Shown: positions 16,008 through 39,014 of the stretch, one piece after another
How positions within the stretch are numbered: position 1 is the first letter of the stretch
Layout: each line of letters starts with the position of its first letter
NCBI GenBank assembly: GCA_013336275.1
Contig: JAAXUA010000002.1
Location: forward strand, 45,057 to 109,056
Reading direction: 5' to 3'
Length of the DNA stretch: 64,000 bases
Origin: Candidatus Falkowbacteria bacterium
Lineage (GTDB): Bacteria; Patescibacteriota; Patescibacteriia; Patescibacteriales; GWE2-39-37
The notes under the pieces: model-generated
Database searches by the model: none
Told to the model about the DNA's origin: nothing
The model's input: the letters and a program-made list of their open reading frames with translations, nothing else
Translations under genes and position numbers: made by a program

Positions 16008-16988
16008 TCAGTATTGTTTGACTCGCAAACCGTTAGAGCCGTACATCTTGTTGACTTGTGCAGCGGTATAGATACCAATAGCGCCCCCTGGTGTCCTTGC
16101 CTTGTTGCCGTGCGAGTCTGCATACCGGCCGTTGCCAAGAGAAATTAAGACATGACCGAATGTTTTTCCGTTGTCCCCTTGTTTCCATCCAACTAGCGTT
16201 CCTTCTGGCAAACTACCAAGCGTTCCGGTGTCATATTTTTTTATAGCGGTATTGGAAAATATCGTTCCAGTGCCGCCGTTAATGCTGATGTTTTTGCTGC
16301 TTTTTAGGACATATGCAGCGAAGCCTGAACAGTCAAAGCAGATTGTTCCGTTAGGCCCTTGGCCGCCTTTGCCGAAGCAATCGCCAGGCTTAATGGTTGA
16401 GTTCAAGCCGTAGGTGACTTTCCCGACAGCTGAGGCGACAATATCAGCAACGCTTCCGCTTTGCAGCAGCTTCGCTGTCGATGCAGTGGTCGTCATGCCA
16501 GAGTCAAGAGAGTCTTCGGTGTCGCCAAGGTTATATTTTTCGATGATTTTTATTTCCAGAGAGGTGCCATTTATGATAGCCGGATTTATTTGCTGTAGCA
16601 CAGTGTAAGATGCCATCATTAGAACTAATCCGGTTATGCTGCCACCGATCCATGCCTTGGCTTCGGAAATCCGCGTGGCATTGCCGGCTGAGGTAAGCCA
16701 AAGCAATCCGCCGAACATCATGCCCACAGTAGCAATAATGCCGATTACGGCAACGGCGTAGTTGTAGAGGCCGGCAATGTATTCCCAAATCCAATTATTG
16801 CACATGTTGTCGCCGCACTGGGCCGGCTCGCTGAAACGCTGCATTCCAGGAATTTTTATCTGCAAGCTATCAGTGGGATTTTTGATGTTCGGCATTTCAA
16901 CATCAGATGCTTGCGCAGGATAAAAAACCGAAAAGAATGCAGGAATGATAAAAAACAGGAGAAGGATTTTTTTTGGGGAGTATTTCAT
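16008..16988 (-). CDS. Secreted VirB2/TrbC-type T4SS-pilin-domain protein fused to a C-terminal NlpC/P60 cysteine peptidase domain
   Basis: Signal peptide. Pilin-like two-helix core IATVGMMFGGLLWLTSAGNATRISEAKAWIGGSITGLVLMMASY (about 16584-16811). C-terminal FDCSGFAAYV...GHVLISLG...DSH, the NlpC/P60 Cys-His-His layout (about 16011-16466). Confidence 0.65.
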   Translation of the reverse strand: MKYSPKKILLLFFIIPAFFSVFYPAQASDVEMPNIKNPTDSLQIKIPGMQRFSEPAQCGDNMCNNWIWEYIAGLYNYAVAVIGIIATVGMMFGGLLWLTSAGNATRISEAKAWIGGSITGLVLMMASYTVLQQINPAIINGTSLEIKIIEKYNLGDTEDSLDSGMTTTASTAKLLQSGSVADIVASAVGKVTYGLNSTIKPGDCFGKGGQGPNGTICFDCSGFAAYVLKSSKNISINGGTGTIFSNTAIKKYDTGTLGSLPEGTLVGWKQGDNGKTFGHVLISLGNGRYADSHGNKARTPGGAIGIYTAAQVNKMYGSNGLRVKQY

Positions 16989-17797
16989 TATTTATTTTTA
17001 CATCTTGCCACGACATTGGCCCACGATGTATAAAATTCGCACATCTTGTTTGCTTCGAAAGAATATGTGCCAGCGTAAGTCGGGTTAAGGGAGGCTTGTG
17101 AGCAACTTGAAATGTCATTGGCTGATTTACACTCTTTCCATTCGGAGCCATCTTTTCCTAAGAGACAGCAGCCGCTTTGGGTCGTGATAGCGTAAGGGTT
17201 CTCGCATTTTTTTGTAGTAGTATTGCACATGCCGCCGGACATCCAGGTATCGGGGCAGCGGCTTTTGGGAACGCCTGCTTGGCAGCTTGACCATCCTTCT
17301 TGCTGCGGACAGCAGCCTTCTCCGCCGGTGCCGGTATTGGGGTCAGCCTTCTTCTCTTTTATCTGGGCAATGCCAGTCGTTCGCAGATTAACCAGGTCAG
17401 TATTGATCGTCGCCAGTAAAATATATGCGCCGAATGCTAAAAGCAATCCGGTTATCGATGAAGTGATATATGTTTTGGCTGAACTAATCTTATCCGGGCT
17501 GCCGCCTGCCGTCAGCCAGACTACACCGCCGATCATCATAAATACAGTAGCCAGGATGCCGGCGACACCGGACAGATATTTGAAAAATGTTTTGATGTAC
17601 TCCGCGATTGGACGAGTGTCCGTGACGTTGGTGAAATCGATTTGATTCGGCTGTCCTGGAATCTGCACTTGAGGGGTGAATTTAACCTCGGTCGCAGACG
17701 CGCTATCGGCTAGGCTTACAAAAAACAATAATGTCGACAGAAATATTAAGCCGTTTACTATGATGAATATTTTTTTACTCATAACCATAGGGTTCAT
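16988..17797 (-). CDS. Secreted VirB2/TrbC-type T4SS-pilin-domain protein with a 12-Cys C-terminal domain
   Basis: Signal peptide. Core ILATVFMMIGGVVWLTAGGSPDKISSAKTYITSSITGLLLAFGAY (about 17393-17620). The C-terminal 110 aa carry 12 Cys, including two CC pairs (about 16991-17320). Its stop overlaps the start of the downstream ORF. Confidence 0.65.
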   Translation of the reverse strand: MNPMVMSKKIFIIVNGLIFLSTLLFFVSLADSASATEVKFTPQVQIPGQPNQIDFTNVTDTRPIAEYIKTFFKYLSGVAGILATVFMMIGGVVWLTAGGSPDKISSAKTYITSSITGLLLAFGAYILLATINTDLVNLRTTGIAQIKEKKADPNTGTGGEGCCPQQEGWSSCQAGVPKSRCPDTWMSGGMCNTTTKKCENPYAITTQSGCCLLGKDGSEWKECKSANDISSCSQASLNPTYAGTYSFEANKMCEFYTSWANVVARCKNK

Positions 17798-18486
17798 TTT
17801 TTGATTAAATCGTCGATTATTTTTTGCCAGATGTCTAGCGGCAAATCACCATCAACCTTGGTACCGTTAATCAGCCAAGTCGGCGTGCCTTTGACGCCGA
17901 TCTTGTCTGCATATTCCAGGTTGGCCAATATCTTGTATTGTTCACCTTGGCTCGCCATACATTTGGTAAAGCCATAGGGCTTGACCCCGACTTGTTCGGC
18001 TAATTTGACCAGGTCTGAAGTTGAGGCAATCTTTCCTTGATTCTGAAAAAGCTTGTCGTGCATAGGCCAGAATTTTCCTTGTTGTCCGGCGCACCTCGCA
18101 GCTAAGGCCAAATCAAGAGATTGTTCACTGATGTTAGGGTAGTCACGAAAAACTATTTTGACGTCGTCTTGGTATTTTGAACCTAGCGAGCGTATTTTTG
18201 AGAAGCTGGATTTCGAATTCGGACAAGAAAAGTCACTGAATTCTACTATGGTTATCTTAGGCGAGCTGGTGCCGAACCAATAGTTATCTTGTCCTTCCGT
18301 ATCAGAGTAGTTGTTACCCGAGGCGACACTGGAAAGCTGTTTGCTTTGGTAATTTTTGGCGGCAAAAAAGGCAGCTGTAAAAACAGTGATGACTAGGGCC
18401 AGAAAAATCCATAATAAAATCGCCCACCAGCGCAAAGGCCACGGACGTTTATTTATTATATTTGTTTGAGGATCAAGTTGAGCCAT
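17794..18486 (-). CDS. Membrane-anchored DsbA-family thioredoxin-fold protein with a CPNS (CxxS) active site
   Basis: Preferred start is MAQLDPQ (ATG at 18486); the track's upstream extension looks non-coding. FSDFSCPNSKS at 18214-18225, and ARCAGQQGKFWPMHDKLF is shared with the paralog at 62202. ATGA overlap with the downstream pilin gene. Confidence 0.7.
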   Translation of the reverse strand: MAQLDPQTNIINKRPWPLRWWAILLWIFLALVITVFTAAFFAAKNYQSKQLSSVASGNNYSDTEGQDNYWFGTSSPKITIVEFSDFSCPNSKSSFSKIRSLGSKYQDDVKIVFRDYPNISEQSLDLALAARCAGQQGKFWPMHDKLFQNQGKIASTSDLVKLAEQVGVKPYGFTKCMASQGEQYKILANLEYADKIGVKGTPTWLINGTKVDGDLPLDIWQKIIDDLIKK

Positions 18487-24341: not shown

Positions 24342-27300
24342 ATGCCAACCCCTAAAAAAAATGGTGCACTCAAGATTTCCATAATCTTCTTCCTATTGTT
24401 GGTGGGACAGTTTTTTGTCATAAGGGCGATTTTCGCCGCAGGTGCATTCCAGACGCCAAGTCTTGAAGTAAACCCAGCGTACAAGGCTGCCGACACTCAA
24501 GCGGAAGCGACCGTGCCTGACTTTTCAGCAATAAAAATACAAGCGCCAGAGCTCAAATACATCCCAGCTTTAAATAAAAAATACTCACTTTTGGCTCAAG
24601 ATACCAACAAGGGTTTTTTTGAGCGTAAATTGGACCAGCTAACGTCTTGGTTTCAGGAAGACTTGTGGGAAGAGGTGATATTGGCTGGAGGGTCCAAAGC
24701 CCTGGGGTCGGCTATGCGTTCGGCTCTTAACACGATTGCCATGGACACCGCCACCTGGCTGGGTTCTGGCGGGAATGGACAGAAGCCGTTGTTTTACACC
24801 GAAGGCTGGGGCGCCTACCTGACCAACGTGGCCGATAATGCTGCTGGAACTTTTGTCGAACAGCTTGGCAAACAGAATGGCTATGCCAAGTTCAATCTTT
24901 GCAAACCGAATTTCGCCCTGCAGATGAAAATAGGTTTAGGTTTGGTCCAGTCAGTTAAGCCATCGGCTCCTGCCTGTACCTTCACAAAACTTGTCAGTAA
25001 TTGGGAAAATGAGTTGACTAGTGAAGATTTTATGCAAAAGATACAATCTTCATTCGACCCGAATAATAACGACTTCGGAGTGGCTTTCTCTTTGCAGACG
25101 GGCATGTTCCAACAGATTGCTGAAGATAAATATTCAAAACTATTAACCCGAGAGGAGGGTCAAGGATATGTCAACGACCCAACGGGGAAGATTTCCGGCG
25201 CGCTGGGCATACCAATCGCATCAGAGGTTGAAAGAAAAAATGTTTTGGACTCTGGCATGAAGGCTAATGCAATTACCCAATACACTGGCTATGCGCTGGT
25301 TGACGCTGCCAACGTCTTTATTAATCAGCTTGCCGTAACGGCTTTTAATGAACTGATGAAAAAGCTGGGGGGTAAAAGCTATACTTCCAGCTATGGCAAC
25401 TGGAATAGCCTGATCAGTAACTTTAGTGCCGGGCCAGACGCCACAATTGGCGGAGGTATTACAGCTACCAAGAACCAGCTCCGCAAGATTGTCGAACCGC
25501 AGTTCAATGTTCGCGGAGACTACAATATATTGTCCGAACTGAGCTCTTGTCCGAAACCGGACAGGGCAGGGCCGACCAACTGCGTTATCGATGAGAAGTT
25601 CAAGCAAGGCATTCTGGACAAGAAGACCGTGGCTGAAGCTGTCAGACTCGGTTATCTTAATGGTGAAAAGGTTGTTGGTTTTAGCAGCGATGGCGTCGAA
25701 CCACGCTACACCGACGCTTATCCTTATAGAACTTTGCTTATCCTGCGCAAATTCCGCATCTTGCCAGTTGGATGGGAGATTGCCGCCCAGTATATTAGGG
25801 ACAACCTTGATTCAACTAAGCCGAACGGAGTCGGTCCTAAAACCTTGGCTGATTTGATGGCTTGTTTTGATCAGAATGATGAATTTCCGGGCTATTTTGC
25901 CGCTTGGTGCCAGGGTCTAGTCGATCCGCACTGGCTCTTAAAAGCACCACTGAACTATTGCCGCCGAGAGGGGCCTGGTCCGGAAAACATCTCGGACGAC
26001 GACTCGACCTTGGTCAGGAATGATAAATATTGCGCCGACGAGCAGTCTTGTATCAAGGAAAAGGCCGATGGTTCTTGTGAATACTATGGTTACTGCACCG
26101 AAGAGAGGCGTAAATGGAAGTTCAATACCGATTCCTGTGAACCTTTGTATAACACTTGCCAAACTTTTAAAAAGGAAGATGGCGCCTCGGTTTCTTATTT
26201 GAAGAATACTTTGGATTATAGCGGCTGCACAGTCGATAATGCAGGGTGTACTGATTATTGCACCGCGTATAATTTCTCAACCGGTAAATATTCCTGCACA
26301 GCGAGCTCTACTGGGAATAAGGTCTTTTTGGATAGAGATGCCCAGTCTTGTGATTCAAAATCAGAAGGATGCACCTCCTTTATTAGAGCCAGGGACGGTC
26401 TTGGAGCCAATCTTTTGTTGAATTCAAGCTTTGAGGAAGATTTGGCCAACGGCACCTGGAGTGCTATTGGCGCTACATCTTCCGATGCTTTTTCTGGGTT
26501 CAGCAGTTTGCTTTTGAACCCGGGCGTCATGACTAAGAATTTTAGCGCCGGACCAGGATTAGCTTATGTCGGCGGTGAATATAATGTAGAGGGTGAGTCT
26601 TATACGATTTCGCTTTATTCTAAGAACTGTCCTGCCGGCAGCACGATCTCGTTGAAAGATGGAGCCAATACAGAATCTGCATCGATCGAATCGGGCGGAA
26701 CTTGGCAGTTATTCTCGTTATCACACGTCTTCTTAAGCTCCGGGCCGAGCTTCGATTTTGAATTCAATACACCTGCTGGTTCAAGCTGTCTGATTGACGC
26801 GATCAAGATGGAGAAGAGTATCGGTGCCACGCCTTATAGCGATTATGGTGCAACAGGTCTTATTACCGAGAAGTATGCACCGAGCTATCTTGGTTGCGAC
26901 GGCGTTGCCGACCCAGCAGAGTGCAAGGATTTTGCACGAAGCTGCAAATTTGAAGAAGTCGGTTGCGAACTATATACCCCAACTAATGGGGGGCTGCCTG
27001 TTCCTGGCAAGGTCAAACCGGGTGATTACTGCGTAGCAGAGTGCGTTGGCTTTGATACTTATTTGCAATCGCAGACTACTTTTGATTCGTTGCGCCCCGA
27101 TTACTTTATTCCTAAGACAGCCAAGTCTTGCAGTGCCGAGCTTAACGGTTGCGATCAGTTCACTAATTTAGATAAGCTGGGCAGTGGCGCCGAGGCGACA
27201 GAGTATTATTCATATCTCCGACAGTGCGTCACCTCCGGTGGCACCCAGTTCTACACTTGGGAAGGCTCGAACGAGACAGGTTTTCAGTTGAAAGTCGTAA

Positions 27301-30300
27301 GCCTTAAGGCTGATGACGACACAGATGATGTGCCTCTTGATTTGGATGGCAACCCGGTAACGCCCGACATCGCTGATTATGTTGGCGACCCAGCAGTTAC
27401 AGGTACACGAGCGCTGGAAGTGGCAAAATGTAATGAGAAAATTTATCAATTGAAACAGACTGACCCCGGCTACAATCCTGATTGTCGCGAATATTATAAT
27501 ACTGCTGGTGTTAAATCGTACCATCTTTACAGTCAGACTATAAGCGAGGACTCCAACTGCCATCCTTATAGGCGAACCGAGGTCAATATCGACCCATCGA
27601 TAACACTTCAAGCAGCTTGTGTCGGTGCTGATAAGAATTGGAATGCTTCCACCACTGAGTGTGCAGTTTGCATTAATGGTGGTGTTTGGAACGCGCAGCA
27701 GGGAGCTTGTATCTATCAAGCGATTCCGGGCCAAGGAACCCAGTGCTCGGCCGCCGCCAATGGTTGCCGCGAGTATACCGGAAATACAGGACAAACGGTC
27801 AAGATATTATCTAATAGTGATTTTGAAGATAGCACATTGCAGGGCTGGGCCAGCTTCAACGGGGCCGATGTTCCAATTTTGAGTACGGAGTCAATAAATA
27901 TGGGCGGACATTCGCTTTATGTTAAGACAACTGCGAATAACCAGGGCGTAGTTTTGGCCATGCCGACTTCGACTATGCTTACCGGCAGTTCATATGCCAT
28001 AACTTTGATTGCTAAGACTAGGACGCCAGTCAATCTCAAGGTCCGTTCAACTAATGCAGCCGCGGCCAATGTCGATTTCATCGGCATTGGGGCGCTTACT
28101 GCCGATTGGCAGATGTATCGAGCAAACCTTTCTGACATGACCGTTATTGACCCCATTAATCTGATCATCGAAGCCGATGTGCCGGCCGAGTTCTTTGTCG
28201 ACAACATCAAGCTCTCCGAAATTTCCAACAGGTTCTATTTGCTTAAGAACTCCTGGAACACCCCCGAGACCTGCAATCAGGACCTGAACAAAAAGCCTTA
28301 TCCTTTATATATGCTTGGTTGTAACGAGTATAAAGATAGGGACAATCTAACGTATTATCTGAGATCGTTTTCATATTTATGCAAGGATGATGCGATCGGT
28401 TGCGAGCTGATGGTTGATATTCATAATTCAACTAATCCAAAATCAGAAAACTTCAATACCGGCACGGCTCAGACAGAAGATGACCTCACGGTTTTGGCTG
28501 ATAATTATATTTATGCAGTTTATGACAAGAAAAAATTATGCAAATCCGAAGATGTCGGTTGCCAGCGCTTGGGCAAGCCATATGACTATTCCGGCGAACG
28601 CCTCCACTCGGATGTCTATCTGAAAAATAATCCGGACAATTACAAGACTGCGATGTGCGACTATCCTGGATTGAGCTGCGATGAGTATTCTTCTGATGAT
28701 AGCGTAAGCTATTTCAAAAACCCTTACGACCTGGCTTGCGAATGGCGTCCCGGACCGAAAAATGTCTATAGCTGGTACAAGAAACGAGTTAATCGTTGCG
28801 ACGTCAATAATGATGGAAGCGGTGAAGGGGCGTTGTGCGCAGATAATGCCGGTTGTTCCGCGGCTCCTGGCTATGTCGGTGTTGCGTGTACGCAGAGCAG
28901 CCAGTGCAACCCCGCCACCCCAGCCCCGCAAAACAATGTCTGTGACAAGGGAGTCTGCCGGTCTGCTTGCAGCGAGGACAGGGTCGACCATCTGTGTTCA
29001 ACCGACTTCGGAATCAATCCCAAGACCTTCGGAATCGGAACCGGCCAGCGTACCTCCCAGCCGACACGCGATGTCGGGGGTACCAATTGGGTTGGCCTCT
29101 GTCCAGCAGAAGAGTCGAGCTGCACAGAATTGGTTGATCCGAAAAGTAGCTTTAACCAGAATTTAATCTTTAACAATGATTTTGCACAGAACATAAATCT
29201 GGCCGATGAGCCTAATCGTGATGGTTGGCCGGGAAATGTCCAGGGTGTCAAATTGGATGCTAACACTCTTTATATCCTGAGCGGAACCGGTAATGCTGGA
29301 AGCAGCGTGACTGTTGGCAACTGCACGTCGGCTTCAGGCGGGTCTAATGTCAGTCTTCTGAGCGCCAACACCAACACATTAAACGCTCCACAGGCTGCTA
29401 TTACTCTTAATTTGGGGGCAAATCCAGTTAAGACGAGCCTAGCCTTCTATTCTAATAATTCAATCAAATGCCAGATTAGCATCGTGCCGGCTGGCGTGGT
29501 CACTAATTTGGACCTGGGGCTCTATAAAGCAGCTGTCGATTATCAGCTAGACAAAGGTCTTGATGCAACGGGCTGTAATGGCTTAGTTGATCAAAGCCAA
29601 GGTTGCGTTTTGTTCAACAAACGCAGTCAGGATGGAGCATCTGTTTTGAACCTCAATTATGACGCTGATACTAGCAGCAGTACACCTTCGATTAACGCCG
29701 GATTAGAAAGGGATTCCAATGTTCTTCTGAAAGTAGCCCCAGACCGCATTTGTGACAAGTGGCTGTCTTGCCGATCATCAGTCACCCTAAAAGATCAGGA
29801 TGGAAACGACAAAAATGTATGTCTGGATATCGCCCTTTGCAATCAATTCGGGTTTGATGGCGGCTGTAACGGCACCATTAGCAAGGACAGGAATAATCAG
29901 ACTTATAATTATCCCAATCTTGGCGGCGGCTTGCTAAGCGCAAGCCAGGTCGGCAATATCAGCGGCTATGCGAAGGTCGGTAAAAATCAGGCCGGACAGA
30001 CAGATGCTCAGATTCCTTTCGGCTCGATGATCCAATACGGTGCAGCAGCCAATGTATATAATGGCAACATGGAATTGGCTGGCGATGATGGCTATCCTGT
30101 TGGTTGGAAATATTATAATTCGAATGACGTTTGGGATGAAAAATCTTTCAAGGTGATCAATACGGTAGCAGGGGTCCAGAATGAAGGTGTTGGCAGCGCT
30201 CCTGAAGGCAACGGCATATTGAAGTTGGGTGTCAGGCACGAAATTACGTCTAACTCATTTACGGTCAAGGGCGGAGAGTTTTATGTCTTGCAGACCATGG

Positions 30301-32768
30301 CAAATACGGCCAGGCTGAAGGGTGATGACAACGCGGATCGGGTGCATATGCGATTTTTCTGTACGGATAATGCCATGATTGAAATCCAGATGGACGACAG
30401 GCAAATACTCCCCGGTGAGTTGTGGCACCAAGTAATGTCGCCCAGAGTGCAGATTCCGAACAATTGTTCCAGAGCATCGGTCCGTTTCTCAGCAGATAAT
30501 GGCATGGAGGGCAATTTCTTTGTCGACGATGTCAAAGTTAAACCGGTGTTGGAGTCTCGTCAGAATGAATATACATCCCAGTCTTGCCGCCTATACCCTA
30601 AATCTGAGGCGAAGTCTTGCCAGTATCAGGACTCCATGGGCATTAGATATAATGGCTGGTATGGCTACTGCTTGGAAAAAGACCGTTACCCAGGCTCTAA
30701 GGATGCCTGCTTGCTTTGGTGGCCAGTAGACAAGATTAACGGTGATCCATTCAGCAAAGAAAATACCTTTAAGGGTTACGATGGCAAATTCCCAGCTTAT
30801 TATTGCGCAGAGCTTGATGGTAATTATCGCTATGTTGAGAAGCGCTCGGCCGCAATGGTGTTGCACCAGACTTCAAGCAAGGCTTGTTTTTGGGGAAATT
30901 TCTTCAATGCCTTGATTCTCGGCGCGACCGGAGGCTGGTCAATTTTAGGCGGCTTCGACATCTTGGGATACAATGGCACCTCGGCCTCTGGTGGACCCTA
31001 CTGTCCGACCGGAGCGGGCTACCTGACCCAGACAGCGAAAGTAGATTGCAGCTGCGGTTTTTGGGATACGGACTGTACTCAGCATTATTATACCTATTGT
31101 TTGCCAGCATCGAGGAAATATGTTGTCAGCAATGCTGGCGAGACTAATAACGAGTGGTCTGGCGGAGCCTGGTATCAATTCAACGGCAGCCTGCTCAAGT
31201 GGCAAGGGCTGGCTGGTCCGGTGACAACCGAAATCGATAATAGTGTAAAAATTCTTGATATGAGCAAGGCTGTGGCGGGCACTAGCGATGGCGAGTTGGT
31301 TGATCCGAGTAAATATGACTTCCTGCCATGTAAGAAGTTCTATCAGACCGTCAGCGAGACCGGGGAAAACAAGGTTTGGCTTGGCCGGTTAGGTGAGGAT
31401 TCGAGATATTCTCCGCTTGGTCTCGGCTACCAATTCAAGCAGGATGATGCACCCTTCGGTTCAGCTGTGCCGCCAAGCCCCGAAGACAATCCGTATGATT
31501 GGGATGGCCACTCTAAGACCGGCCGTCAACCGATTTCATTCAAGTTGCCGGAAAGTCAGGAAGTCAGGGCTGGCTCGCCCTATGCCTGTACTGGTGCAAA
31601 GTGTTCCCAGGTTGGTCATTGCGCCGATAGCGGCAGAACTTGTGTTTCATTAACCACTGTTACAGAACCTATTGATTTATGCGCAACCCTAGGAGCCGCC
31701 GGTACCGTTTCTGGCGCCGCCTACGCAACTCCAAATCTTTGTTATACGGCTGAAAATACTCAGGTAGTTCCAGTGAATGTTATGTCAACTGAGTGTACTA
31801 GGATTGCCACCGGCCTTGCCTGTACTCCTCAGAGTACAGCTGGCTGTAACTGCATATCGCAGCCTACTGGCTTGCCTGGTCCTGCTCCTGCAAATGCTAC
31901 AATTTGCCGAAATGCTGCCAGTGCCTACTGCGACCCGGGTGTTTGTAGCGGTCCTGTGGGAGCGGCGTCCTGCAACACTGTGGTTATAGGCGTGACCAAC
32001 GTTACCACAGCCGCAGCTGGCGGCCCCTCTGACAACTTGGCAATGATTTACCCGTCGTCAGCCTCGACAACCAACCCAAATGCCAGAACCTGGACCTCAC
32101 CGGAGTATGCCTGTGAATATGGCGAAGAGTGTGTAATCACGCCGCAGCCAGATTGGCCAGTAGCAGCTCCTCAGGTTGCCAGAACAGCAGCTCAGACCTA
32201 CCCGGCCTTGGAAAATTTGAAGCGCATGTTCGCTAAGAATTATGGCGTGTGGGTTTGGAATCCTGCTACTAAACATTATGAGAAAGATAACAATCCGGTT
32301 GAAAATTGGGACATCAACAACGATCCAGCAGCAGGTTTCTGCGCCTCCCCAAGACCAGCCTGGGTTCCTGCCGTGACCAATGACTATTGCCGCATCAGAC
32401 CTACAGTCGACAATGTGCTGGTAGATAAGAGTGTTGTTCACAAGGGGGATAATGTCATATTGACATTCAATTCCCATGTTGACGTCAACCAACTGCCAGT
32501 CGTATATTACAAGATTGTTTGGGGTGACGGAAAGCCTGATACGGTTGTTACGGGTGAATTCAGCGATCGACCGAACGCTAATAACCCCCATGTTGTCACG
32601 CATCGCTATGAATATAATGATATCCAAGGCTGCTCGACCGATCCTTGCGGTGACACTAATGGCGATGGTGTGTCTGATACATTAAGGCCGACAGTTATTC
32701 TGATGGATAACTGGGGCACTGAAAGCCTCACCGCAACAGGTCCTGTGGTATCGGTATTCTCGAATTAA
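24342..32768 (+). CDS. Giant (2,808 aa) Cys-rich surface protein with N-terminal anchor, multiple CBM4/9-like jelly-roll modules and a C-terminal PKD-like domain
   Basis: A single uninterrupted ORF with an N-terminal hydrophobic anchor. CBM-like modules open with LLLNSSFEEDLANGTW (about 26410-26820), ILSNSDFEDSTLQGW (about 27800-28225), NLIFNNDFAQN (about 29160-29540, weaker) and YNGNMELAGDDGYPVGW (about 30055-30548). Three of them close with the hallmark F(F/Y)VD(D/N)(I/V)K-like strand. YKIVWGDGKPD...THRYEY (about 32390-32615) is PKD-like. Confidence 0.75.
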   Translation: MPTPKKNGALKISIIFFLLLVGQFFVIRAIFAAGAFQTPSLEVNPAYKAADTQAEATVPDFSAIKIQAPELKYIPALNKKYSLLAQDTNKGFFERKLDQLTSWFQEDLWEEVILAGGSKALGSAMRSALNTIAMDTATWLGSGGNGQKPLFYTEGWGAYLTNVADNAAGTFVEQLGKQNGYAKFNLCKPNFALQMKIGLGLVQSVKPSAPACTFTKLVSNWENELTSEDFMQKIQSSFDPNNNDFGVAFSLQTGMFQQIAEDKYSKLLTREEGQGYVNDPTGKISGALGIPIASEVERKNVLDSGMKANAITQYTGYALVDAANVFINQLAVTAFNELMKKLGGKSYTSSYGNWNSLISNFSAGPDATIGGGITATKNQLRKIVEPQFNVRGDYNILSELSSCPKPDRAGPTNCVIDEKFKQGILDKKTVAEAVRLGYLNGEKVVGFSSDGVEPRYTDAYPYRTLLILRKFRILPVGWEIAAQYIRDNLDSTKPNGVGPKTLADLMACFDQNDEFPGYFAAWCQGLVDPHWLLKAPLNYCRREGPGPENISDDDSTLVRNDKYCADEQSCIKEKADGSCEYYGYCTEERRKWKFNTDSCEPLYNTCQTFKKEDGASVSYLKNTLDYSGCTVDNAGCTDYCTAYNFSTGKYSCTASSTGNKVFLDRDAQSCDSKSEGCTSFIRARDGLGANLLLNSSFEEDLANGTWSAIGATSSDAFSGFSSLLLNPGVMTKNFSAGPGLAYVGGEYNVEGESYTISLYSKNCPAGSTISLKDGANTESASIESGGTWQLFSLSHVFLSSGPSFDFEFNTPAGSSCLIDAIKMEKSIGATPYSDYGATGLITEKYAPSYLGCDGVADPAECKDFARSCKFEEVGCELYTPTNGGLPVPGKVKPGDYCVAECVGFDTYLQSQTTFDSLRPDYFIPKTAKSCSAELNGCDQFTNLDKLGSGAEATEYYSYLRQCVTSGGTQFYTWEGSNETGFQLKVVSLKADDDTDDVPLDLDGNPVTPDIADYVGDPAVTGTRALEVAKCNEKIYQLKQTDPGYNPDCREYYNTAGVKSYHLYSQTISEDSNCHPYRRTEVNIDPSITLQAACVGADKNWNASTTECAVCINGGVWNAQQGACIYQAIPGQGTQCSAAANGCREYTGNTGQTVKILSNSDFEDSTLQGWASFNGADVPILSTESINMGGHSLYVKTTANNQGVVLAMPTSTMLTGSSYAITLIAKTRTPVNLKVRSTNAAAANVDFIGIGALTADWQMYRANLSDMTVIDPINLIIEADVPAEFFVDNIKLSEISNRFYLLKNSWNTPETCNQDLNKKPYPLYMLGCNEYKDRDNLTYYLRSFSYLCKDDAIGCELMVDIHNSTNPKSENFNTGTAQTEDDLTVLADNYIYAVYDKKKLCKSEDVGCQRLGKPYDYSGERLHSDVYLKNNPDNYKTAMCDYPGLSCDEYSSDDSVSYFKNPYDLACEWRPGPKNVYSWYKKRVNRCDVNNDGSGEGALCADNAGCSAAPGYVGVACTQSSQCNPATPAPQNNVCDKGVCRSACSEDRVDHLCSTDFGINPKTFGIGTGQRTSQPTRDVGGTNWVGLCPAEESSCTELVDPKSSFNQNLIFNNDFAQNINLADEPNRDGWPGNVQGVKLDANTLYILSGTGNAGSSVTVGNCTSASGGSNVSLLSANTNTLNAPQAAITLNLGANPVKTSLAFYSNNSIKCQISIVPAGVVTNLDLGLYKAAVDYQLDKGLDATGCNGLVDQSQGCVLFNKRSQDGASVLNLNYDADTSSSTPSINAGLERDSNVLLKVAPDRICDKWLSCRSSVTLKDQDGNDKNVCLDIALCNQFGFDGGCNGTISKDRNNQTYNYPNLGGGLLSASQVGNISGYAKVGKNQAGQTDAQIPFGSMIQYGAAANVYNGNMELAGDDGYPVGWKYYNSNDVWDEKSFKVINTVAGVQNEGVGSAPEGNGILKLGVRHEITSNSFTVKGGEFYVLQTMANTARLKGDDNADRVHMRFFCTDNAMIEIQMDDRQILPGELWHQVMSPRVQIPNNCSRASVRFSADNGMEGNFFVDDVKVKPVLESRQNEYTSQSCRLYPKSEAKSCQYQDSMGIRYNGWYGYCLEKDRYPGSKDACLLWWPVDKINGDPFSKENTFKGYDGKFPAYYCAELDGNYRYVEKRSAAMVLHQTSSKACFWGNFFNALILGATGGWSILGGFDILGYNGTSASGGPYCPTGAGYLTQTAKVDCSCGFWDTDCTQHYYTYCLPASRKYVVSNAGETNNEWSGGAWYQFNGSLLKWQGLAGPVTTEIDNSVKILDMSKAVAGTSDGELVDPSKYDFLPCKKFYQTVSETGENKVWLGRLGEDSRYSPLGLGYQFKQDDAPFGSAVPPSPEDNPYDWDGHSKTGRQPISFKLPESQEVRAGSPYACTGAKCSQVGHCADSGRTCVSLTTVTEPIDLCATLGAAGTVSGAAYATPNLCYTAENTQVVPVNVMSTECTRIATGLACTPQSTAGCNCISQPTGLPGPAPANATICRNAASAYCDPGVCSGPVGAASCNTVVIGVTNVTTAAAGGPSDNLAMIYPSSASTTNPNARTWTSPEYACEYGEECVITPQPDWPVAAPQVARTAAQTYPALENLKRMFAKNYGVWVWNPATKHYEKDNNPVENWDINNDPAAGFCASPRPAWVPAVTNDYCRIRPTVDNVLVDKSVVHKGDNVILTFNSHVDVNQLPVVYYKIVWGDGKPDTVVTGEFSDRPNANNPHVVTHRYEYNDIQGCSTDPCGDTNGDGVSDTLRPTVILMDNWGTESLTATGPVVSVFSN

Positions 32769-32769
32769 G

Positions 32770-33354
32770 ATGTTAGAATTAAATCAACAACAAGCGGCGT
32801 TGGATTTGCGTTTGGCGCAAGCGGCTGAGCGTAACAGTGTCGAGCCCGAGGAGTCAGTTGTTGAACGACCGGAGATGTCATTGCGCCAAAGGCGTCTGTT
32901 GGCCAAAAAACAAGAAGATCAAATCAGTAAGGTCGCAGCCAACAAGCTGTCCAGTGGAGGTGGGGAAACGGCAAGTCAAGGCGTTAAATTCGCTACCGCC
33001 AGGCTGCTGCGCGCTGCCTGGATGAGCGAAGGCACGATCGTCGGCTTTCTTCTGGGGCTGGTTTACATCAATATCCACGTTTTTCTGCGCATGGTGCTTG
33101 GTCCGAATATGTTTTGCAAGCTTGGCGAGGAGTGGTCGCTTGGCAAGACGGGGACAGCTGGCAAGACCGCCAGTACCGGGTTGTTTTTGGTTGAAGCGAT
33201 GCAGCTTATCCTTTTTGATTTGTTGATTTTGGCCATATTGGCTTTCGTCTGTTTCTGGCTTTACTTACTAGCCCAACTTATCACGAGTCCATGGGAAACG
33301 ATACAGCAAAACGGGTGGGAATTTTTCAAGTCATTGTGGGACTTAATGAGATAA
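32770..33354 (+). CDS. Hypothetical integral membrane protein
   Basis: 194 aa. Charged N-terminal third, then 2-3 hydrophobic helices. Starts 1 nt after the giant gene's stop. Confidence 0.55.
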   Translation: MLELNQQQAALDLRLAQAAERNSVEPEESVVERPEMSLRQRRLLAKKQEDQISKVAANKLSSGGGETASQGVKFATARLLRAAWMSEGTIVGFLLGLVYINIHVFLRMVLGPNMFCKLGEEWSLGKTGTAGKTASTGLFLVEAMQLILFDLLILAILAFVCFWLYLLAQLITSPWETIQQNGWEFFKSLWDLMR

Positions 33355-33363
33355 CACGACAAA

Positions 33364-36045
33364 ATGAAAAAAGCTATAAAAAAGTTGAAAGATCATAAAA
33401 TCAAGGCAGTCGTTTTTCTTTTGTTCTGTGCTTCATTATTCTTGGGACAGCATGTTTATGCTGTCTCTGGTGAGGATAAGTTGAGTACGGTTTTTGGCGC
33501 AGTCGGCGTTGCCGTTACTACGGTTGTGGGTATTTTTGCTTATTTGCTAACCACCGTTTTCGGCCTGGCCTTAACGGCCATGGCAGCCCTCTTGGTCCAG
33601 GTTGCTCTGTACAGCGACATAATCAATGTTCCGGCAGTTAGGGAGGGGTGGGTCATTATCCGTGATTTGTGCAATATGTTCTTCGTGCTGATTTTCTTGA
33701 TCATCGCTTTTGCGACGATTTTGCGAATAGAGAATTACAGCGCTAAACGGCTGTTGCCCAAGCTGATTATAATGGCTATCTTGATTAATTTTTCCAAGAC
33801 TATTTTCGGCTTGTTGATTGATTTTTCACAGATCGTCATGTTGACCTTTGTGGTCGCCTTTAAGAATGGGGGCGGCTGGTTCATGGATGCGTTCAGAGTG
33901 CAGAAGTGGTATTCCTTTAACATGAACGATAAGGACTCGAGCGCGGCTACTCAATGGGGAACTGTCGTTGCTATGGTTTTGTCCGTATTTGCAGCTGCTG
34001 TTGCATTGATAATGGTGATGGTCATTCTTGCGGTTCTAGTTATACGTATTGTCATGCTTTGGATTTATACTATTTTATCACCTTTTGTGTTCCTGGGCTG
34101 GGCCTTCCCGCCAGTCGGCAAATATACCGAACAGATTTGGACTGACTTCATTAAGCAGCTTATTGTCGGTCCTGTGCTGGCTTTTTTCCTGTGGCTAGCA
34201 TTGGCCTTTGGAACAGCAAGTTCCAGCACCATGTCATTATCGGCCAGCAGCACAGAGGTTTGCGCCGGCGTTAGTGGTATGTTTTGTACAGGTGAATTAC
34301 AGAAGTTTATTATCATGCTTGGCATGATGGTGGGTGGGCTTATTACTGCCCAATCTGTGGGTGGCGCAGGCGCCAAGGCTGTCAACTGGGGCACTAATAA
34401 GATTAAGAGCGGTCAGGCCTGGGCTGGCAACAAGTTTAATCGTGGCTTCCAAGATGTAACCCGTATCAGCGCTGCAAAGGAGTACTATTCACAGTACCGA
34501 GCCTCTAAAGAGGGTGCCAGAACGGAAAAAATTCAGCTGCAGGCCAATCAGATGGCTTATGGTGTTGGCAAAGCAAAAGAAATGACAGTTGGCAAGGTGA
34601 GCGGTTTTGCAACTGAGCAGTGGGGTAGATTCGGCGGCAATAGTGCCAAGAAATTGCGTGACACCAACAATAAGGATCGGGTTAAGATGCAAGAACTGAA
34701 TGAAGGCAAGGGCTTGGCATTTGAAAAGGCAAAAGATCGCCTTGCATCTAACATGATGAGTCAACGTACGGTGACCATAGGTAACGAAAGGTATGGCCGG
34801 ACCGGGACGGGCTGGACTGATAATACTGGGCGCTATTTTGAGGACGGCGCAATAAAAGAGAAGCTTATTAAGACTGACCAATTCAAGGCTCAGTTAACTC
34901 CAGTGATACAACAAAGGCAGGCTACTCTTCAGCGGCACATGGATCGTCGAGAGTCTTTGGCTCAGTCTGCTCAAGCTAGACAGAAGAGATTTGATCGTTT
35001 GGGTAAACTCGGCTTAGCCGCAACACTTGGTGCGGCTACCGGCGGTGCAGCCCTAGCTGGCGGCGCCTTGGCAGCTTCAGCTGGTCTTGGTGCGGTAGCT
35101 GCTGCCCCGATGGCATATGGATCACTTGGTGAAATGGGCAAAAGGTTCAAGGGCGCTGGCAAGACTGACGGCAATTTAGTTTCTAAATTTAGAATTGAAC
35201 AGATTACTAAGGCCAAGGGAGACATGAAGGATGATAATCACGGCACTGTTTTGGCAAATATCAATGATGAAAGCAAGAGTGCTTTTGTTAGGCTGGCAGC
35301 TGTCATGGAAGCAATGGACCGTCATTTGCTCAGCCAACAGGACGTTAACAGATACCGCAACATATTCCAAGGAAAATTAGGAGGACCGAATGTCGCTCCA
35401 GATGCTGCAGCTCAGCCATGGGCCGACAAGAAAATCAACAGCCGTTTCGAAGCTATTGTTGATAAGAATTATAAAGGCGCTAGTCTCGGATGGCACACTG
35501 CCCAAGACCAAACTCCAGGAAAACAGGATGATGCACGCAGGGCTCAGCTTTCGATTCAGGATGATTTTGCAAGTGGCGACGTCAAGTTAAAAGATCTGGG
35601 TGTGGATGCCTTGCGTGACTCAATAAATCAATTGGCCTTGGGCATGAAGAATGGGCAGTTCGTTAAAGAGTATAAAGATCTTAACCCTGCCAAACAGCAA
35701 GCGCTTATCGATGCTCTTGATAGAAATACTACTTATGAGGCAAAGGCAAAACTGGCTTTTGTAACGAATATCCAAAGAGCCTTTAGAAATGATCAGGCTG
35801 GGGCAACACGATTCATGCAAGGTTTGAGCGTCAAGCAAATCAAGGAAATATTCGAAGAGGAGTCTGACCCTGCGAAAACCAACGCCATAAGATCAGCGGT
35901 CGGGGGTGATCAGAATAATCTTTCGCAAAACGTCAGGCTTTATATCAATGGCAACAGTGCTGCGGCGCAGCAGATGAGAGCCGATCTGGGAGTCGGACAA
36001 CCTGCTGCTCCGAACCCGCCTCAAAATCAGAATCAGATTCCTTAA
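33364..36045 (+). CDS. Polytopic membrane protein, candidate VirB6/TrbL/PrgH-type T4SS channel component with a long soluble C-terminal region
   Basis: 893 aa. Signal/TM, then at least 6 hydrophobic helices in the first about 340 aa, followed by a long polar region with one Ala/Gly-rich hydrophobic segment. The assignment rests on its position in the operon with VirB3/VirB4 homologues. Confidence 0.4.
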   Translation: MKKAIKKLKDHKIKAVVFLLFCASLFLGQHVYAVSGEDKLSTVFGAVGVAVTTVVGIFAYLLTTVFGLALTAMAALLVQVALYSDIINVPAVREGWVIIRDLCNMFFVLIFLIIAFATILRIENYSAKRLLPKLIIMAILINFSKTIFGLLIDFSQIVMLTFVVAFKNGGGWFMDAFRVQKWYSFNMNDKDSSAATQWGTVVAMVLSVFAAAVALIMVMVILAVLVIRIVMLWIYTILSPFVFLGWAFPPVGKYTEQIWTDFIKQLIVGPVLAFFLWLALAFGTASSSTMSLSASSTEVCAGVSGMFCTGELQKFIIMLGMMVGGLITAQSVGGAGAKAVNWGTNKIKSGQAWAGNKFNRGFQDVTRISAAKEYYSQYRASKEGARTEKIQLQANQMAYGVGKAKEMTVGKVSGFATEQWGRFGGNSAKKLRDTNNKDRVKMQELNEGKGLAFEKAKDRLASNMMSQRTVTIGNERYGRTGTGWTDNTGRYFEDGAIKEKLIKTDQFKAQLTPVIQQRQATLQRHMDRRESLAQSAQARQKRFDRLGKLGLAATLGAATGGAALAGGALAASAGLGAVAAAPMAYGSLGEMGKRFKGAGKTDGNLVSKFRIEQITKAKGDMKDDNHGTVLANINDESKSAFVRLAAVMEAMDRHLLSQQDVNRYRNIFQGKLGGPNVAPDAAAQPWADKKINSRFEAIVDKNYKGASLGWHTAQDQTPGKQDDARRAQLSIQDDFASGDVKLKDLGVDALRDSINQLALGMKNGQFVKEYKDLNPAKQQALIDALDRNTTYEAKAKLAFVTNIQRAFRNDQAGATRFMQGLSVKQIKEIFEEESDPAKTNAIRSAVGGDQNNLSQNVRLYINGNSAAAQQMRADLGVGQPAAPNPPQNQNQIP

Positions 36046-36052
36046 TAAAAAT

Positions 36053-37138
36053 ATGAATACAAATATCTCTAATTTTTTCAGCAAGATTTCTAAATATCCC
36101 GAAGAGGTCCAGTTTTATTTTGAATCGAAGTCACTGGTGATAGCGGTGGCAGATTTAGCAGAAAAATATAATCTTGCAGCAGGTTCATTAAATGAATTGA
36201 TGTTGGATTTAGCGGTCGATGATTTTGACTTGGCAAAGTTGCCAAAAAAAATAGAATCAAAATTTTTTTCAGCCGTTGGGGAGAAGCAGGGTGATTTATT
36301 GAGAGATTTTTTTGGGGTTTTATTGCTGCCCTTATCTGCATTTTTAAAAAATGTAAATATAAAGCAGGAATTTGCTAAAATTGGAGGTCATGAAGATGAG
36401 TATGCGATTTATCTTGAGGAGTTCAATAATGAATTAGAAGAAGAGCTGCTGGATGCTTTGGATGAGTATATGGATGAATATGAAAAAACTATTGATTTAA
36501 AAAGCGAAGCTTCAGCTTCATTGGAACTTTTTTCCTTCAATTTTGTCGACGTGATAAAATCTAGCTCATCTGAAACCTTGTCTTCGCTCAATGCCGGACT
36601 GATTTATCTTTTAAATCATCAGGCAGATTTTAAGGATGAGTTAGTCAAACGACTTGTTACAAACCAGGAGAGGTTGACAGCAAGCAACATTAATATTGAC
36701 GGGAAGGCAGTTGAGCCGAGTATAGCTAATTGGATAAAGGATTTTATACAGAAGAATGGCAGTAGTTATTTCAATAATATTTCTCTGACTGAGTATCTTA
36801 CAAATTCTGAGAATACCAAGCAGCTTTCAGGTCAAGAAAGAACTTTGCTCGGTGACGTTTTTGAAACTTACAGAAATTTGAAGTTTTTCCCCCAAAGCAT
36901 GGAAGCTTTGCCTGCACATAAGTGGGCTATCGTGCCACATAACCGCCCCGAACAGAAGAAGGCAAGCCTGGCTAAACGAGTTGAAGTGATTAAGAAAAAT
37001 GAAAATGTACCGCTCATTACGGAAGAAAAAAAAGAACAGACAAGGGCAGAGGAGCTTAAGAAGATGTCTGAATCTTTTCCGCCCAATAGCCTCGAACGGC
37101 GGGCTATTGAGCAGGAAATTGCAAGTTTGAATAAATAA
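36053..37138 (+). CDS. Hypothetical protein (AT-rich gene; N-terminal domain paralogous to the next ORF)
   Basis: 361 aa, no TM, with an acidic central stretch. The N-terminal about 90 aa align by eye with the N-terminus of 37146..38576. Confidence 0.5.
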   Translation: MNTNISNFFSKISKYPEEVQFYFESKSLVIAVADLAEKYNLAAGSLNELMLDLAVDDFDLAKLPKKIESKFFSAVGEKQGDLLRDFFGVLLLPLSAFLKNVNIKQEFAKIGGHEDEYAIYLEEFNNELEEELLDALDEYMDEYEKTIDLKSEASASLELFSFNFVDVIKSSSSETLSSLNAGLIYLLNHQADFKDELVKRLVTNQERLTASNINIDGKAVEPSIANWIKDFIQKNGSSYFNNISLTEYLTNSENTKQLSGQERTLLGDVFETYRNLKFFPQSMEALPAHKWAIVPHNRPEQKKASLAKRVEVIKKNENVPLITEEKKEQTRAEELKKMSESFPPNSLERRAIEQEIASLNK

Positions 37139-37145
37139 AACAATT

Positions 37146-38576
37146 ATGAGTTTCGATTATTTGAGAAAATTCAACGAGCTGCCGGCCGAAGTCAAGGCGG
37201 CGGCTTCTTCGCCTGAAGCGATGGCTTCTTTGGATGAATTGGAAGAGAAGTACCACGTCAACCTGGCCAGCTTGGTCATGCGCATCCTGGTCAAGGAGGT
37301 CAGATTGGCCGAATTAGACAATCATTTATTGATAGATTTGAAGATGGGTCCGGCCGAGGCGGTCGCAGTTGCTGCCGCCCTAAGGGAGAAGATCCTGTCG
37401 CCAGCAATGAAATATCTTATGACCGAGAGCCCGACTCCAGTGGCTAAAGGACAGGAATTGGTTGAAATCGAGCACAATCTTCCTGACGCTCCAGCCAATC
37501 ATAGCCATGCCGAGGAGGAGGTTTTGGATCTTTCTCAGGAATTGAAAGAGCTTAATCGGGAAAAGACTTTACAGCTAGACCTCAAGACCGGAAGACAGGA
37601 TGATATTTTCAATGAAGAAGATGAAACGGAAATTAAAGTTCTGACAGAGCAGATGGATGTCATTGAAAAACCGGCCACGGACCCGACCGAAGAAAATCTA
37701 TCCAAGCTGATCGAAGAGTGTAAGATCAGTTTTTCCAGCCAAATCCTAGTCGACCGTTTCAGGCAGATATTCAGCACCTATTTGAAAGGCATTCGGAAGA
37801 AGATTGAGACTAAAGATGCCATGCTCAAGCCGATTGAGGCGGGTGGGCTGAATCTTGATGATGCGGAAATAGAACGCATCATGCAGCTGGCCCAGAAGTA
37901 CGTGGCGGTCGATGGAGATGCAAAAATGGAGCAACCGAAAAAGATAGTATTGCCTGAGGACAAGCTGGCTTCCGACAGAATGGCCGTGCTAAAGGAGATT
38001 GGAGCTCGTGATGTTGAGTACGACTTAGGCAAAGCGATAGAGGAGCGCAAGAATCAGGCTCAGCCGAGTGATGGCCAAAAGGCGCAGGCAGAGACGGCAG
38101 CACCTCAACCAGCTCCCGCCGCACCAGTAGCGGCAACAATCCAGTTAAAACCTCAACTGCCCGCCGAACCGGCCAAAAAGACATTCTCGTTTTTTCGCAA
38201 TTCTGATGCCATCGGCAAAAAGAAGATGGAAGACGTCAAATTCGTCCCCAAGACTATGGGTCCGATCGATGAGCTGCGCTTCATGGATACCGTGAGCTTT
38301 CGTCGATTGGGCAAGGTGGCGGCTGAAAGTACAGCTAAGCTCAGGGACAAAATTACTCTTTTGGAAAAAGAGCAATATGCTAAAAAGTTAGAGGGCATCA
38401 AGGCTTGGCGGCAAAGCCCGTTGAATCAGCTGTATGTCTCAATGACGCAAAATGCGCTAAGTCAAGGGTTGAGTATCGACCAGGTAATCACCCAGAAAAG
38501 CCAGGCCAATGAGGACTGTTTGAATCAGGCCGAGTTTGAGGCTATAATGAAGTTAAATCAAGAGTTAAGATTCTAG
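37146..38576 (+). CDS. Hypothetical protein (N-terminal domain paralogous to the previous ORF)
   Basis: 476 aa. N-terminal ELPAEVKAAASSPEAMASLDELEEKYHVNLASLVMRIL. Ala/Pro-rich linker QAETAAPQPAPAAPVAAT. Confidence 0.5.
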   Translation: MSFDYLRKFNELPAEVKAAASSPEAMASLDELEEKYHVNLASLVMRILVKEVRLAELDNHLLIDLKMGPAEAVAVAAALREKILSPAMKYLMTESPTPVAKGQELVEIEHNLPDAPANHSHAEEEVLDLSQELKELNREKTLQLDLKTGRQDDIFNEEDETEIKVLTEQMDVIEKPATDPTEENLSKLIEECKISFSSQILVDRFRQIFSTYLKGIRKKIETKDAMLKPIEAGGLNLDDAEIERIMQLAQKYVAVDGDAKMEQPKKIVLPEDKLASDRMAVLKEIGARDVEYDLGKAIEERKNQAQPSDGQKAQAETAAPQPAPAAPVAATIQLKPQLPAEPAKKTFSFFRNSDAIGKKKMEDVKFVPKTMGPIDELRFMDTVSFRRLGKVAAESTAKLRDKITLLEKEQYAKKLEGIKAWRQSPLNQLYVSMTQNALSQGLSIDQVITQKSQANEDCLNQAEFEAIMKLNQELRF

Positions 38577-38579
38577 GGT

Positions 38580-39014
38580 ATGCAACAATTCACGGTACCT
38601 CAGTTTATCGATGTTGAAGATAAGATTATCGGCCCGATTACCACGCGCCAATTCGTTATTATCCTGGCATCATTTTTGATTATCGCTTTGTGTTACAGAT
38701 TGTTTGATTTTTCAGCCTTCATTTTTTTCGGAATAATTATTTTTGCAATTATGATTGTGCTGGCATTCGTGAAGATCAACGGCCGACCGTTTCATTTTTT
38801 TATGTTGAATGTCATCCAGACCTTCAAGCGACCAAAGACCAGAATCTGGCTCAAGGACGAAAGCGTCGAATCTTCGGTCGAAGCAGAAGATCCTTCACTT
38901 AAACGGTTCGAACCTGTTCCGGTCAAGGAGTACACTTTGGGCGGTTCCAGGCTGGATGAGATGTCATTGATCGTCGATACGCAGGGCGCTTACCGAGGCG
39001 AAATCAGAAAATAA
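38580..39014 (+). CDS. PrgI/VirB3-like small membrane protein
   Basis: 144 aa. MQQFTVPQFIDVEDKIIGPITTRQFVIIL followed by two TM helices matches the PrgI-family layout. It sits immediately upstream of the VirB4 ORFs, as in Gram-positive T4SS. Confidence 0.6.
   Translation: MQQFTVPQFIDVEDKIIGPITTRQFVIILASFLIIALCYRLFDFSAFIFFGIIIFAIMIVLAFVKINGRPFHFFMLNVIQTFKRPKTRIWLKDESVESSVEAEDPSLKRFEPVPVKEYTLGGSRLDEMSLIVDTQGAYRGEIRK

Follow-up and report, generated by a model that had tools for sequence, protein, structure and literature searches.

Tandem arrays of divergent pilin genes in Patescibacteria have already been published, as has their essentiality. In Southlakia epibionticum and other Patescibacteria (Quinonero-Coronel et al. 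2025, PMC12102498; Wang et al. 2023, PMC10633639), the arrays encode small, structurally conserved pilins of the Pfam family PF18895, often near virB4, in a monoderm cell with a type IV secretion system (T4SS) of the VirB4, PrgI and VirB6 type. The pilin array and the T4SS are essential in Southlakia (PMC10633639), and most Patescibacteria with VirB2 have no detectable VirB1 (PMC12102498). We describe here a related array in a 64-kb stretch of DNA, hereafter the window, from Candidatus Falkowbacteria, ultra-small members of the Patescibacteria or candidate phyla radiation (CPR). Its three genes, A, B and C, encode a DsbA-like protein and two proteins with a pilin module of the same Pfam family, the latter extended by a Cys-rich domain (B) or by a putative NlpC/P60 peptidoglycan endopeptidase (C). 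As in the published cases, the divergent pilin genes of the window stand in tandem and the cell is a monoderm whose T4SS is of the VirB4, PrgI and VirB6 type; the array differs from those published in the 130-185-residue tails of both members, in its distance of 22 kb from virB4 and in the DsbA gene that stands in front. No description of pilin-hydrolase fusions was found in the full-text literature searched, which returned array papers only and thus fits the remark in the initial annotation of this DNA that such a fusion seemed unstudied; the Patescibacterial pilin papers (PMC10633639, PMC12102498, PMC12857230) deal with small subunits and leave enzyme fusions unmentioned. Not having been found in the searchable literature, the hydrolase fusions are apparently new.

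Closest to C in function are perhaps the hydrolases of Gram-positive T4SSs (PrgK of pCF10, TraG of pIP501, CwlT of ICEBs1, TcpG and CD419), in which an N-terminal membrane anchor is followed by SLT, NlpC/P60-CHAP or M23-type domains and which have been proposed, as we propose for the present locus, to open the wall for the secretion channel. Their anchor is a simple transmembrane helix or a lipid, and there are often two hydrolase domains per protein (PMC12102498). In the array described here, in contrast, every tail is borne by a separate conserved pilin hairpin, and the T4SS operon does not include the genes. A component of a wall-crossing machine is also fused to a peptidoglycan hydrolase in FlgJ of the flagellum and in the virion-associated lysins of phage tails, an arrangement that confines the cutting of the wall to the site at which the machine grows; this is an analogy and not a homology, the folds and machines being unrelated to those of the pilin fusions. 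Finally, the propilins TrbC of RP4 and VirB2 of Ti have, as B and C do, a signal peptide and two hydrophobic helices. The RP4 TrbC precursor has a C-terminal extension that is lost during maturation; the extensions known from such propilins span between a few and about 30 residues and do not persist, whereas the tails of B and C are folded-type domains of 130-185 residues.

Two pilin-module proteins with C-terminal domains

Genes A (17794..18486; 230 amino acids from ATG), B (16988..17797; 269 amino acids) and C (16008..16988; 326 amino acids) belong to a string of tightly spaced minus-strand open reading frames (ORFs) at 15558-18486. As the initial annotation had read them, their stop and start codons overlap, A and B in an ATGA at 17794-17797 and B and C in a TAATG with one shared base at 16988. 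Identical database copies from a Candidatus Falkowbacteria contig exist for A (230 amino acids, P0021; P numbers denote database homologues) and C (326 amino acids). That of B (P0013, 264 amino acids, 98% coverage) lacks the 5 N-terminal residues, which points to initiation 5 codons behind the ATG at 17797. The names under which these copies are filed are 'C40 family peptidase' (C), 'hypothetical protein' and 'thioredoxin domain-containing protein'.

C is composed of a signal peptide, a VirB2-like pilin hairpin, a disordered linker and an NlpC/P60 endopeptidase domain; B (homologues P0013-P0020) has a signal peptide and a VirB2-like hairpin followed by a 12-Cys C-terminal domain. The search with the T4SS_pilin and NLPC_P60 models suggested along with the initial annotation bears out the signal peptide and two-helix T4SS-pilin core that it had assigned to both proteins: B matches T4SS_pilin (PF18895) with 35.7 bits over residues 61-128, above the cut-off of 26.6, C matches it with 25.8 bits over residues 65-131, less than 1 bit below that cut-off, and NLPC_P60 matches C with 29.9 bits (cut-off 23). 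B also matches TrbC (PF04956) with 16.8 bits, under the cut-off of that family. A hidden Markov model (HMM) of the module, with both proteins in its seed, scores 139 bits on residues 40-137 of B (17387..17680, minus strand), whose invariant residues are shared with C-type proteins, and 161 bits on residues 36-141 of C (16566..16883, minus strand). AlphaFold2 (AF2) models place the hairpin helices at residues 62-96 and 101-131 of B, with a predicted local distance difference test (pLDDT) value of about 80, and at residues 66-99 and 104-134 of C (pLDDT 77-91). Compared at the level of sequence, C unambiguously shares its pilin module with B and with all homologues, 14 residues being invariant across 20 sequences; the motifs include QxxIPG, Y..Y....GI...., M..GG..WL...G, AK and an INP-type turn.

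Both hydropathy and the AF2 models describe B and C as a pair of hydrophobic helices, connected by a short loop of basic character (NATRISEAK and SPDKISSAK in the sequences), behind a cleavable-type signal peptide with an AxA-type signal peptidase I site (ASA, AQA). That they might be generic lipoproteins was rejected on the grounds of these sites and of the absence of a lipobox Cys. The two proteins exceed the size of typical pilins, which have about 70-120 residues when mature and no further folded domain: the extension behind the module measures about 132 residues in B and about 185 in C, within the range of about 110-190 given in the initial annotation, and the mature proteins would have about 234 and 299 residues, respectively. 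Mean pairwise identity is 0.46-0.56 in the pilin module and 0.22-0.41 in the attached enzyme domains, in a set whose choice with a module-dominated profile biases this comparison; a module more conserved than the enzymes that it carries is, on such alignments, unusual for a plain anchor.

The catalytic domain of C (residues 207-295, 16104..16370, minus strand) is separated from the hairpin by a linker (residues 146-175, 16464..16553, minus strand) that is predicted to be disordered (AF2 pLDDT < 50). Its Cys220 (FDCSGF; 16329-16331) and His279 (GHV; 16152-16154) are in register with those of the solved structures 7cfl (E 1.4e-6) and CwlO 8wt3, and far from being lost in alignment, as would have spoken against the annotation, both are invariant in 21 pilin-NlpC/P60 fusions. 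In the same fusions position 291 is D, E or Q in 19 of 21 and His293 is kept in 12 of 21, which makes Asp291 (16116-16118) a likelier third catalytic residue than His293. Of the Cys-His-His layout initially assigned to C, the domain, the Cys and the first His thus stand, and the triad is probably Cys-His-Asp. Taken together, the domain is a putative peptidoglycan endopeptidase with intact catalytic residues. In a fold search of the C model against the PDB, NlpC/P60-type enzymes top the list, at values that are not significant. Of the five Cys of C, two form a pair before helix 1 (Cys58/Cys63), two lie in the enzyme domain, where they are a probable disulfide pair, and one is the catalytic thiol.

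The tail of B has exactly 12 Cys, the number first noted, at residues 162-266 (17000..17314, minus strand), in two units that each open with GCC; the first unit resembles, by eye, that of P0015-P0017. No family match for this tail was obtained in Pfam or NCBIfam, and no confident fold was predicted (AF2 pLDDT < 50, a model that is not usable). Compared with the closest related locus (L001), sliding-window DNA identity is 0.7-0.85 over the operon and drops to about 0.4, with gaps, in a cassette at 16914..17360 that spans the Cys-rich domain of B and the signal peptide of C. On this comparison the Cys-rich domain of B, unlike its neighbours, was either replaced or changed beyond recognition; such a fast-evolving, disulfide-rich domain most likely binds something.

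Two further genes of 72 codons follow on the same strand (15787-16005 and 15558-15776), the first beginning after a gap of 2 nucleotides behind the stop codon of C, so that the gene string extends beyond the three genes first described; the pair is probably co-transcribed with C. The product of 15558-15776 matches DUF2283 (26 bits, Pfam), and the other has no Pfam match at E <= 5. Homologues of the pair are kept 3' of the arrays in 12 of 46 loci (the window, L001, L002, L004, L007, L009, L015, L020, L026, L035, L040 and L046), whatever the C-terminal domain of the last pilin. We note that the pair resembles a toxin-antitoxin pair, for which such stability is unusual.

A large modular family

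A profile search of 1.84 billion representative proteins returned 33,611 matches (representatives at 50% identity). The profile included C-terminal columns, so that the top 150 matches are biased towards long proteins and do not imply that all members are long. Among the best 138 matches, 127 match PF18895 at E <= 0.001, some of them above the curated cut-off, and their tails include SLT (10), NlpC/P60 (10), VanY/M15 (9), 3D (6), SLT_3 (5) and glucosaminidase (2) domains, as well as M23, Amidase_2, M15_4 and C39-like domains; a phage-lysozyme fusion was found in locus L039. Homologues of C keep the N-terminal module and swap the tail, which is NlpC/P60 in P0002, P0006 and P0007 and VanY/M15 in P0003, P0005 and P0010; in P0004, P0008 and P0011 it is rich in His and Asp and probably of the LAS type. 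Clustering of 248 tails gave six large groups (LAS-like, Cys-rich, VanY, NlpC/P60, SLT and 3D). The median number of Cys per tail is 10, and 131 of 156 tails have an even number. Judged by these domain matches, B and C are one instance of a very large modular family in which a pilin module is fused to nearly every class of wall hydrolase. Neither this family nor two further features, the association with DsbA genes (usually CxxC), which is the most conserved one, and the hypervariable cassette of B, had been seen in the initial annotation.

The commonest tail (cluster 0, 49 members, for example P0004, P0008, P0011 and L004 7181-8233) is without a Pfam match; it has conserved His/Asp and HxH motifs (CHxNGTCxD ... 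HFH), as in zinc LAS-type peptidases, and may represent an unmodelled family of wall peptidases. Nine homologues (P0141, P0142, P0143, P0146, P0150, P0167, P0170, P0177 and P0222) have two to four pilin modules in a polypeptide of 460-890 amino acids; they may be genuine tandem fusions, or else artefacts of gene calling in which members of an array were merged.

A DsbA-like partner gene

The first gene of the operon, A, matches Thioredoxin_4 (89 bits) and DSBA (62 bits) in Pfam and has a hydrophobic segment at residues 15-46 that would serve as transmembrane anchor; it is predicted to be an extracytoplasmic, membrane-anchored thioredoxin-fold protein of the DsbA/MdbA type. Its active-site motif is CPNS (TGT CCG AAT TCG, 18214..18225, minus strand), as first reported, in place of CxxC, and Cys88 is its sole active-site Cys; Cys132 and Cys176, as a pair, are probably structural. 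CPNS is kept in the nearest orthologues (P0021-P0025), and CxxS or CxxT occurs in about 30 of 120 close homologues, so that CxxS is not unique to A. A sequencing error was rejected as its origin, since five orthologues share CPNS and CxxS recurs independently as CPFS, CPKS, CPYS and CEFS. Lacking CxxC, A is a member of the fold and not a classical oxidase, the oxidase cycle being impossible for it; by analogy with CxxS isomerases, it may act as an isomerase or holdase through mixed disulfides.

The DsbA and MdbA oxidoreductases of monoderms are comparable to A in that both are genetically tied to secreted Cys-rich surface proteins, and they differ from it in running the classical oxidase cycle. 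MdbA of Actinomyces, which is required for the folding of the pilin FimA, is, like A, a membrane-anchored extracellular thioredoxin fold, and yeast Eug1 is a monothiol CxxS member of the protein disulfide isomerase family comparable to A with its CPNS. An MdbA-like family enriched in the CPR, in which 92% of the members have CxxC, has been tied to pilin folding (bioRxiv 10.1101/335083). Among 37 DsbA-like genes of the related loci and the window, 29 encode CxxC and 8 encode CxxS, in five different CxxS motifs. DsbA being usual beside the arrays, and mostly CxxC, the rule appears to be that of a DsbA together with Cys-rich pilin fusions, of which the monothiol form is a lineage variant. The window holds a second gene of the DsbA fold (62202..62936, minus strand; Thioredoxin_4, 91 bits), whose translation has a canonical CSYC and whose product could supply the oxidase activity absent from A. 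This CSYC gene sits between radA and a beta-propeller gene (60792-63994 of the window), and a five-gene pilin array fills the same slot in the Uhrbacteria locus L037 (7300-14199); this slot may be an ancestral site of the DsbA/pilin module.

Gene neighbourhoods and the T4SS operon

A scan of species-representative genomes yielded 54 loci (L numbers), all from Patescibacteria and mostly Falkowbacteria-like. The recurrent order is a giant T4SS gene, leuS, the DsbA gene and one to four long pilin genes, sometimes followed by the two small genes. Where the flanks are long enough, 35 of 43 loci have the DsbA gene less than 5 kb ahead of their first pilin gene, and 14 of 30 have the giant first gene of the T4SS operon at a distance of 5-9 kb. 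The arrays typically start with a Cys-rich member, which is followed by differing hydrolase fusions; that of L008, for instance, encodes Cys-rich, NlpC/P60, 3D and M15_4 members. In L037, short pilins of 177 and 145 amino acids share the array with pilin-NlpC/P60 and pilin-VanY fusions. Two more distant relatives, L003 (5343-11149) and L004 (2755-10138), present an odd mixture of envelope and core-metabolism genes, in which one strand carries DsbA and pilin-fusion genes interspersed with those for the gamma, alpha and beta subunits of a 2-oxoacid:ferredoxin oxidoreductase. L005, L008, L013, L015, L017 and about 20 other loci carry the GenBank title 'uncultured Gammaproteobacteria bacterium' despite being clearly Patescibacterial, probably as a result of a labelling error in the assemblies.

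In the window, the tightly packed T4SS-like operon (24342..42968, plus strand; Pfam and gene spacing) starts 5.9 kb from A-B-C on the opposite strand, in agreement with the approximately 6 kb first estimated. Its first gene (24342-32768) encodes a giant Cys-rich surface protein of 2808 amino acids, which, like B and C, would need extracytoplasmic disulfide formation; this secreted protein has a weak CBM_4_9 match, and its N-terminal region is conserved beside pilin arrays in many loci. Directly behind it, 32770-33354 encodes a protein of 194 amino acids with a C-terminal pair of hydrophobic helices, which has no family match and no match to the pilin-module HMM and may represent a strongly diverged pilin-like or VirB3-like component. 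The operon further encodes a polytopic protein of 893 amino acids that we read as VirB6-like, a PrgI/VirB3-like protein (38580-39014, Pfam), the VirB4 ATPase (39703-41622, Pfam) and a small anchored protein, by our reading possibly VirB8-like, followed by ComF. Searched against all six-frame ORFs of the window, the module HMM matches only B and C and thus no gene of the T4SS operon. Pfam scans together with the same HMM search revealed no short canonical pilin and no VirB1-like gene in the window. None of the T4SS-operon genes scanned with Pfam belongs to a peptidoglycan hydrolase family, and C is the only wall hydrolase among the about 30 window ORFs so scanned. No relaxase or coupling protein was recognised in the window.

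Proposed function and alternatives

We propose that A, B and C together form an envelope module acting in concert with the Patescibacterial T4SS nearby, B and C being T4SS pilin-module proteins that carry domains stabilised by disulfides, for wall cutting and for binding, outside the cell and provide a VirB1-like function in cis. B and C would be exported by the Sec pathway, their signal peptides being removed after ASA and AQA, and would reside in the membrane as a VirB2-type helical hairpin with the basic loop in the cytoplasm and both ends outward; a signal peptide, two helices and a basic loop are suggestive of this orientation, which would place the tails in the wall compartment. C would then tether an active NlpC/P60 cysteine endopeptidase on a flexible linker of about 30 residues, and B would present its fast-evolving, disulfide-rich and probably binding domain. 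A may help to form or reshuffle the disulfides of both, with the CSYC paralogue as a possible oxidase. As the handle for the VirB4-type machine, the hairpin would bring the tails to the site of the T4SS or onto a pilus, with the C-terminus outside by analogy with F pili. Both termini of F-pilin lie on the exterior of the pilus (PMC7555446), which would in principle allow the decoration of a filament with C-terminal domains. Peptidoglycan would in this way be cut where the apparatus crosses the wall, the substrate being the cell's own wall and possibly that of the host too. Both options initially considered for such a fusion, a VirB1/PrgK-like function supplied in cis and a hydrolase carried on the pilus to breach a host cell wall, fit this topology alike. 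SLT, NlpC/P60-type and M23-type domains, found here among the tails of the family, also occur in hydrolases of Gram-positive T4SSs. We assign this proposal a probability of roughly 0.45.

Several observations weigh against it. The T4SS operon does not include A-B-C, which are 22 kb away from VirB4 and have housekeeping genes such as rpoC and leuS as neighbours. The genetic link between A-B-C and the T4SS is one of proximity. The DsbA and pilin genes of L003 and L004 are interspersed among genes for oxidoreductase subunits, in L037 no T4SS gene is present among the flanking ORFs scanned, the array lying between the beta-propeller gene and radA, and in several genomes second loci are distant from the giant gene. 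The conserved order itself may in part be synteny inherited within one clade, because the pattern search reaches mainly close relatives. As to structure, the fold searches of the B and C models against the PDB gave no significant matches, conjugative pilins appearing at E of about 1-2 only (Foldseek listed an archaeal structure, 8dfu, at ranks 3 and 19 and the T-pilus, 8exh, at rank 12); a helical hairpin is a generic shape, and the evidence from folds is compatible but weak because these E-values are not significant. A domain of 17-20 kDa on every subunit may not fit into a VirB2-type filament, and there is no short pilin nearby. Lastly, pilus formation by PF18895 proteins has been shown by nobody (PMC12857230).

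The alternative that survives best, although we consider it rather unlikely, is that B and C belong to a set of housekeeping autolysins in which the hairpin is a mere membrane anchor for wall-remodelling enzymes of growth and division (endopeptidase, carboxypeptidase, lytic transglycosylase and amidase), with no role for the T4SS and no polymerisation. Between them the arrays do provide the kinds of enzyme that ordinary wall turnover requires, their context is chromosomal and housekeeping (beside rpoBC, leuS and POR genes), the L037 array is without a T4SS gene among its scanned flanking ORFs, and C has no competitor as wall hydrolase among the scanned window ORFs; VanY-type carboxypeptidases, moreover, are typically wall-maturation enzymes. 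A plain anchor would not, however, be expected to have 14 invariant residues or to be conserved above the catalytic domains attached to it. Autolysins would also leave unexplained why the arrays are headed by Cys-rich, non-enzymatic and hypervariable proteins such as B, why short canonical pilins stand beside fused ones in L037, and why the arrays recur near the head of the T4SS operon.

A bolder version of our proposal, which we hold to be unlikely, is that the T4SS builds a filament or surface patch from tool-bearing pilin modules, the hypervariable Cys-rich members recognising the surface of the host, the hydrolases digesting its wall locally and a dedicated DsbA paralogue folding the parts. 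The steric difficulty of so bulky a tail on each subunit would vanish if B and C were pro-proteins. In this last case the tail, exported by means of the pilin module, would be cut off near INPxLxN or in the linker to give a short pilin and a soluble lysin or binding protein. The segment after helix 2 is indeed conserved (INPxLxN) and followed by the linker that is predicted to be disordered, the window yielded no short pilin gene, and the shedding of a C-terminal peptide by the RP4 TrbC propilin offers a precedent. Against such processing, neither operon shows a TraF-like or other dedicated protease, and the linker between module and tail is variable and showed no conserved cleavage motif. A strand after helix 2 may, in addition, belong to the module by pairing with the N-terminal hairpin, a secondary-structure prediction by AF2 of moderate to low confidence. 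We regard processing as improbable. The idea of a polymorphic-toxin-like system, in which a conserved N-terminal delivery module would carry interchangeable wall-degrading toxins against competitors and be followed by immunity genes, is very improbable: the swapping of enzyme domains behind a conserved module and the small genes directly downstream of C would suit it, but the downstream pair is the same whichever C-terminal domain is present, occurs in only 12 of 46 loci and, having no signal peptides (translations inspected), could not protect the wall compartment, for which reasons an immunity role was rejected, and the arrays hold several different enzymes side by side and not toxin-immunity pairs.

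Significance

The T4SS and the pilin array are essential in the one genetically tractable Patescibacterium. If B and C work with the T4SS as we propose, hydrolases carried on the pilin module would account for the VirB1 that is missing from most Patescibacterial genomes with a T4SS (PMC12102498), and would provide a concrete idea of how an ultra-small epibiont passes its apparatus through its own wall and perhaps through that of its host. Should the tool-bearing pilins prove to form a filament or surface patch, they would amount to an enzymatic drill, with a toolkit of endopeptidase, carboxypeptidase, lytic transglycosylase, amidase and muramidase, that clears a path for the exchange needed by these epibionts. 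Whichever reading holds, the family is very large and is now annotated piecemeal as 'C40 peptidase', 'pilin' or 'hypothetical'.

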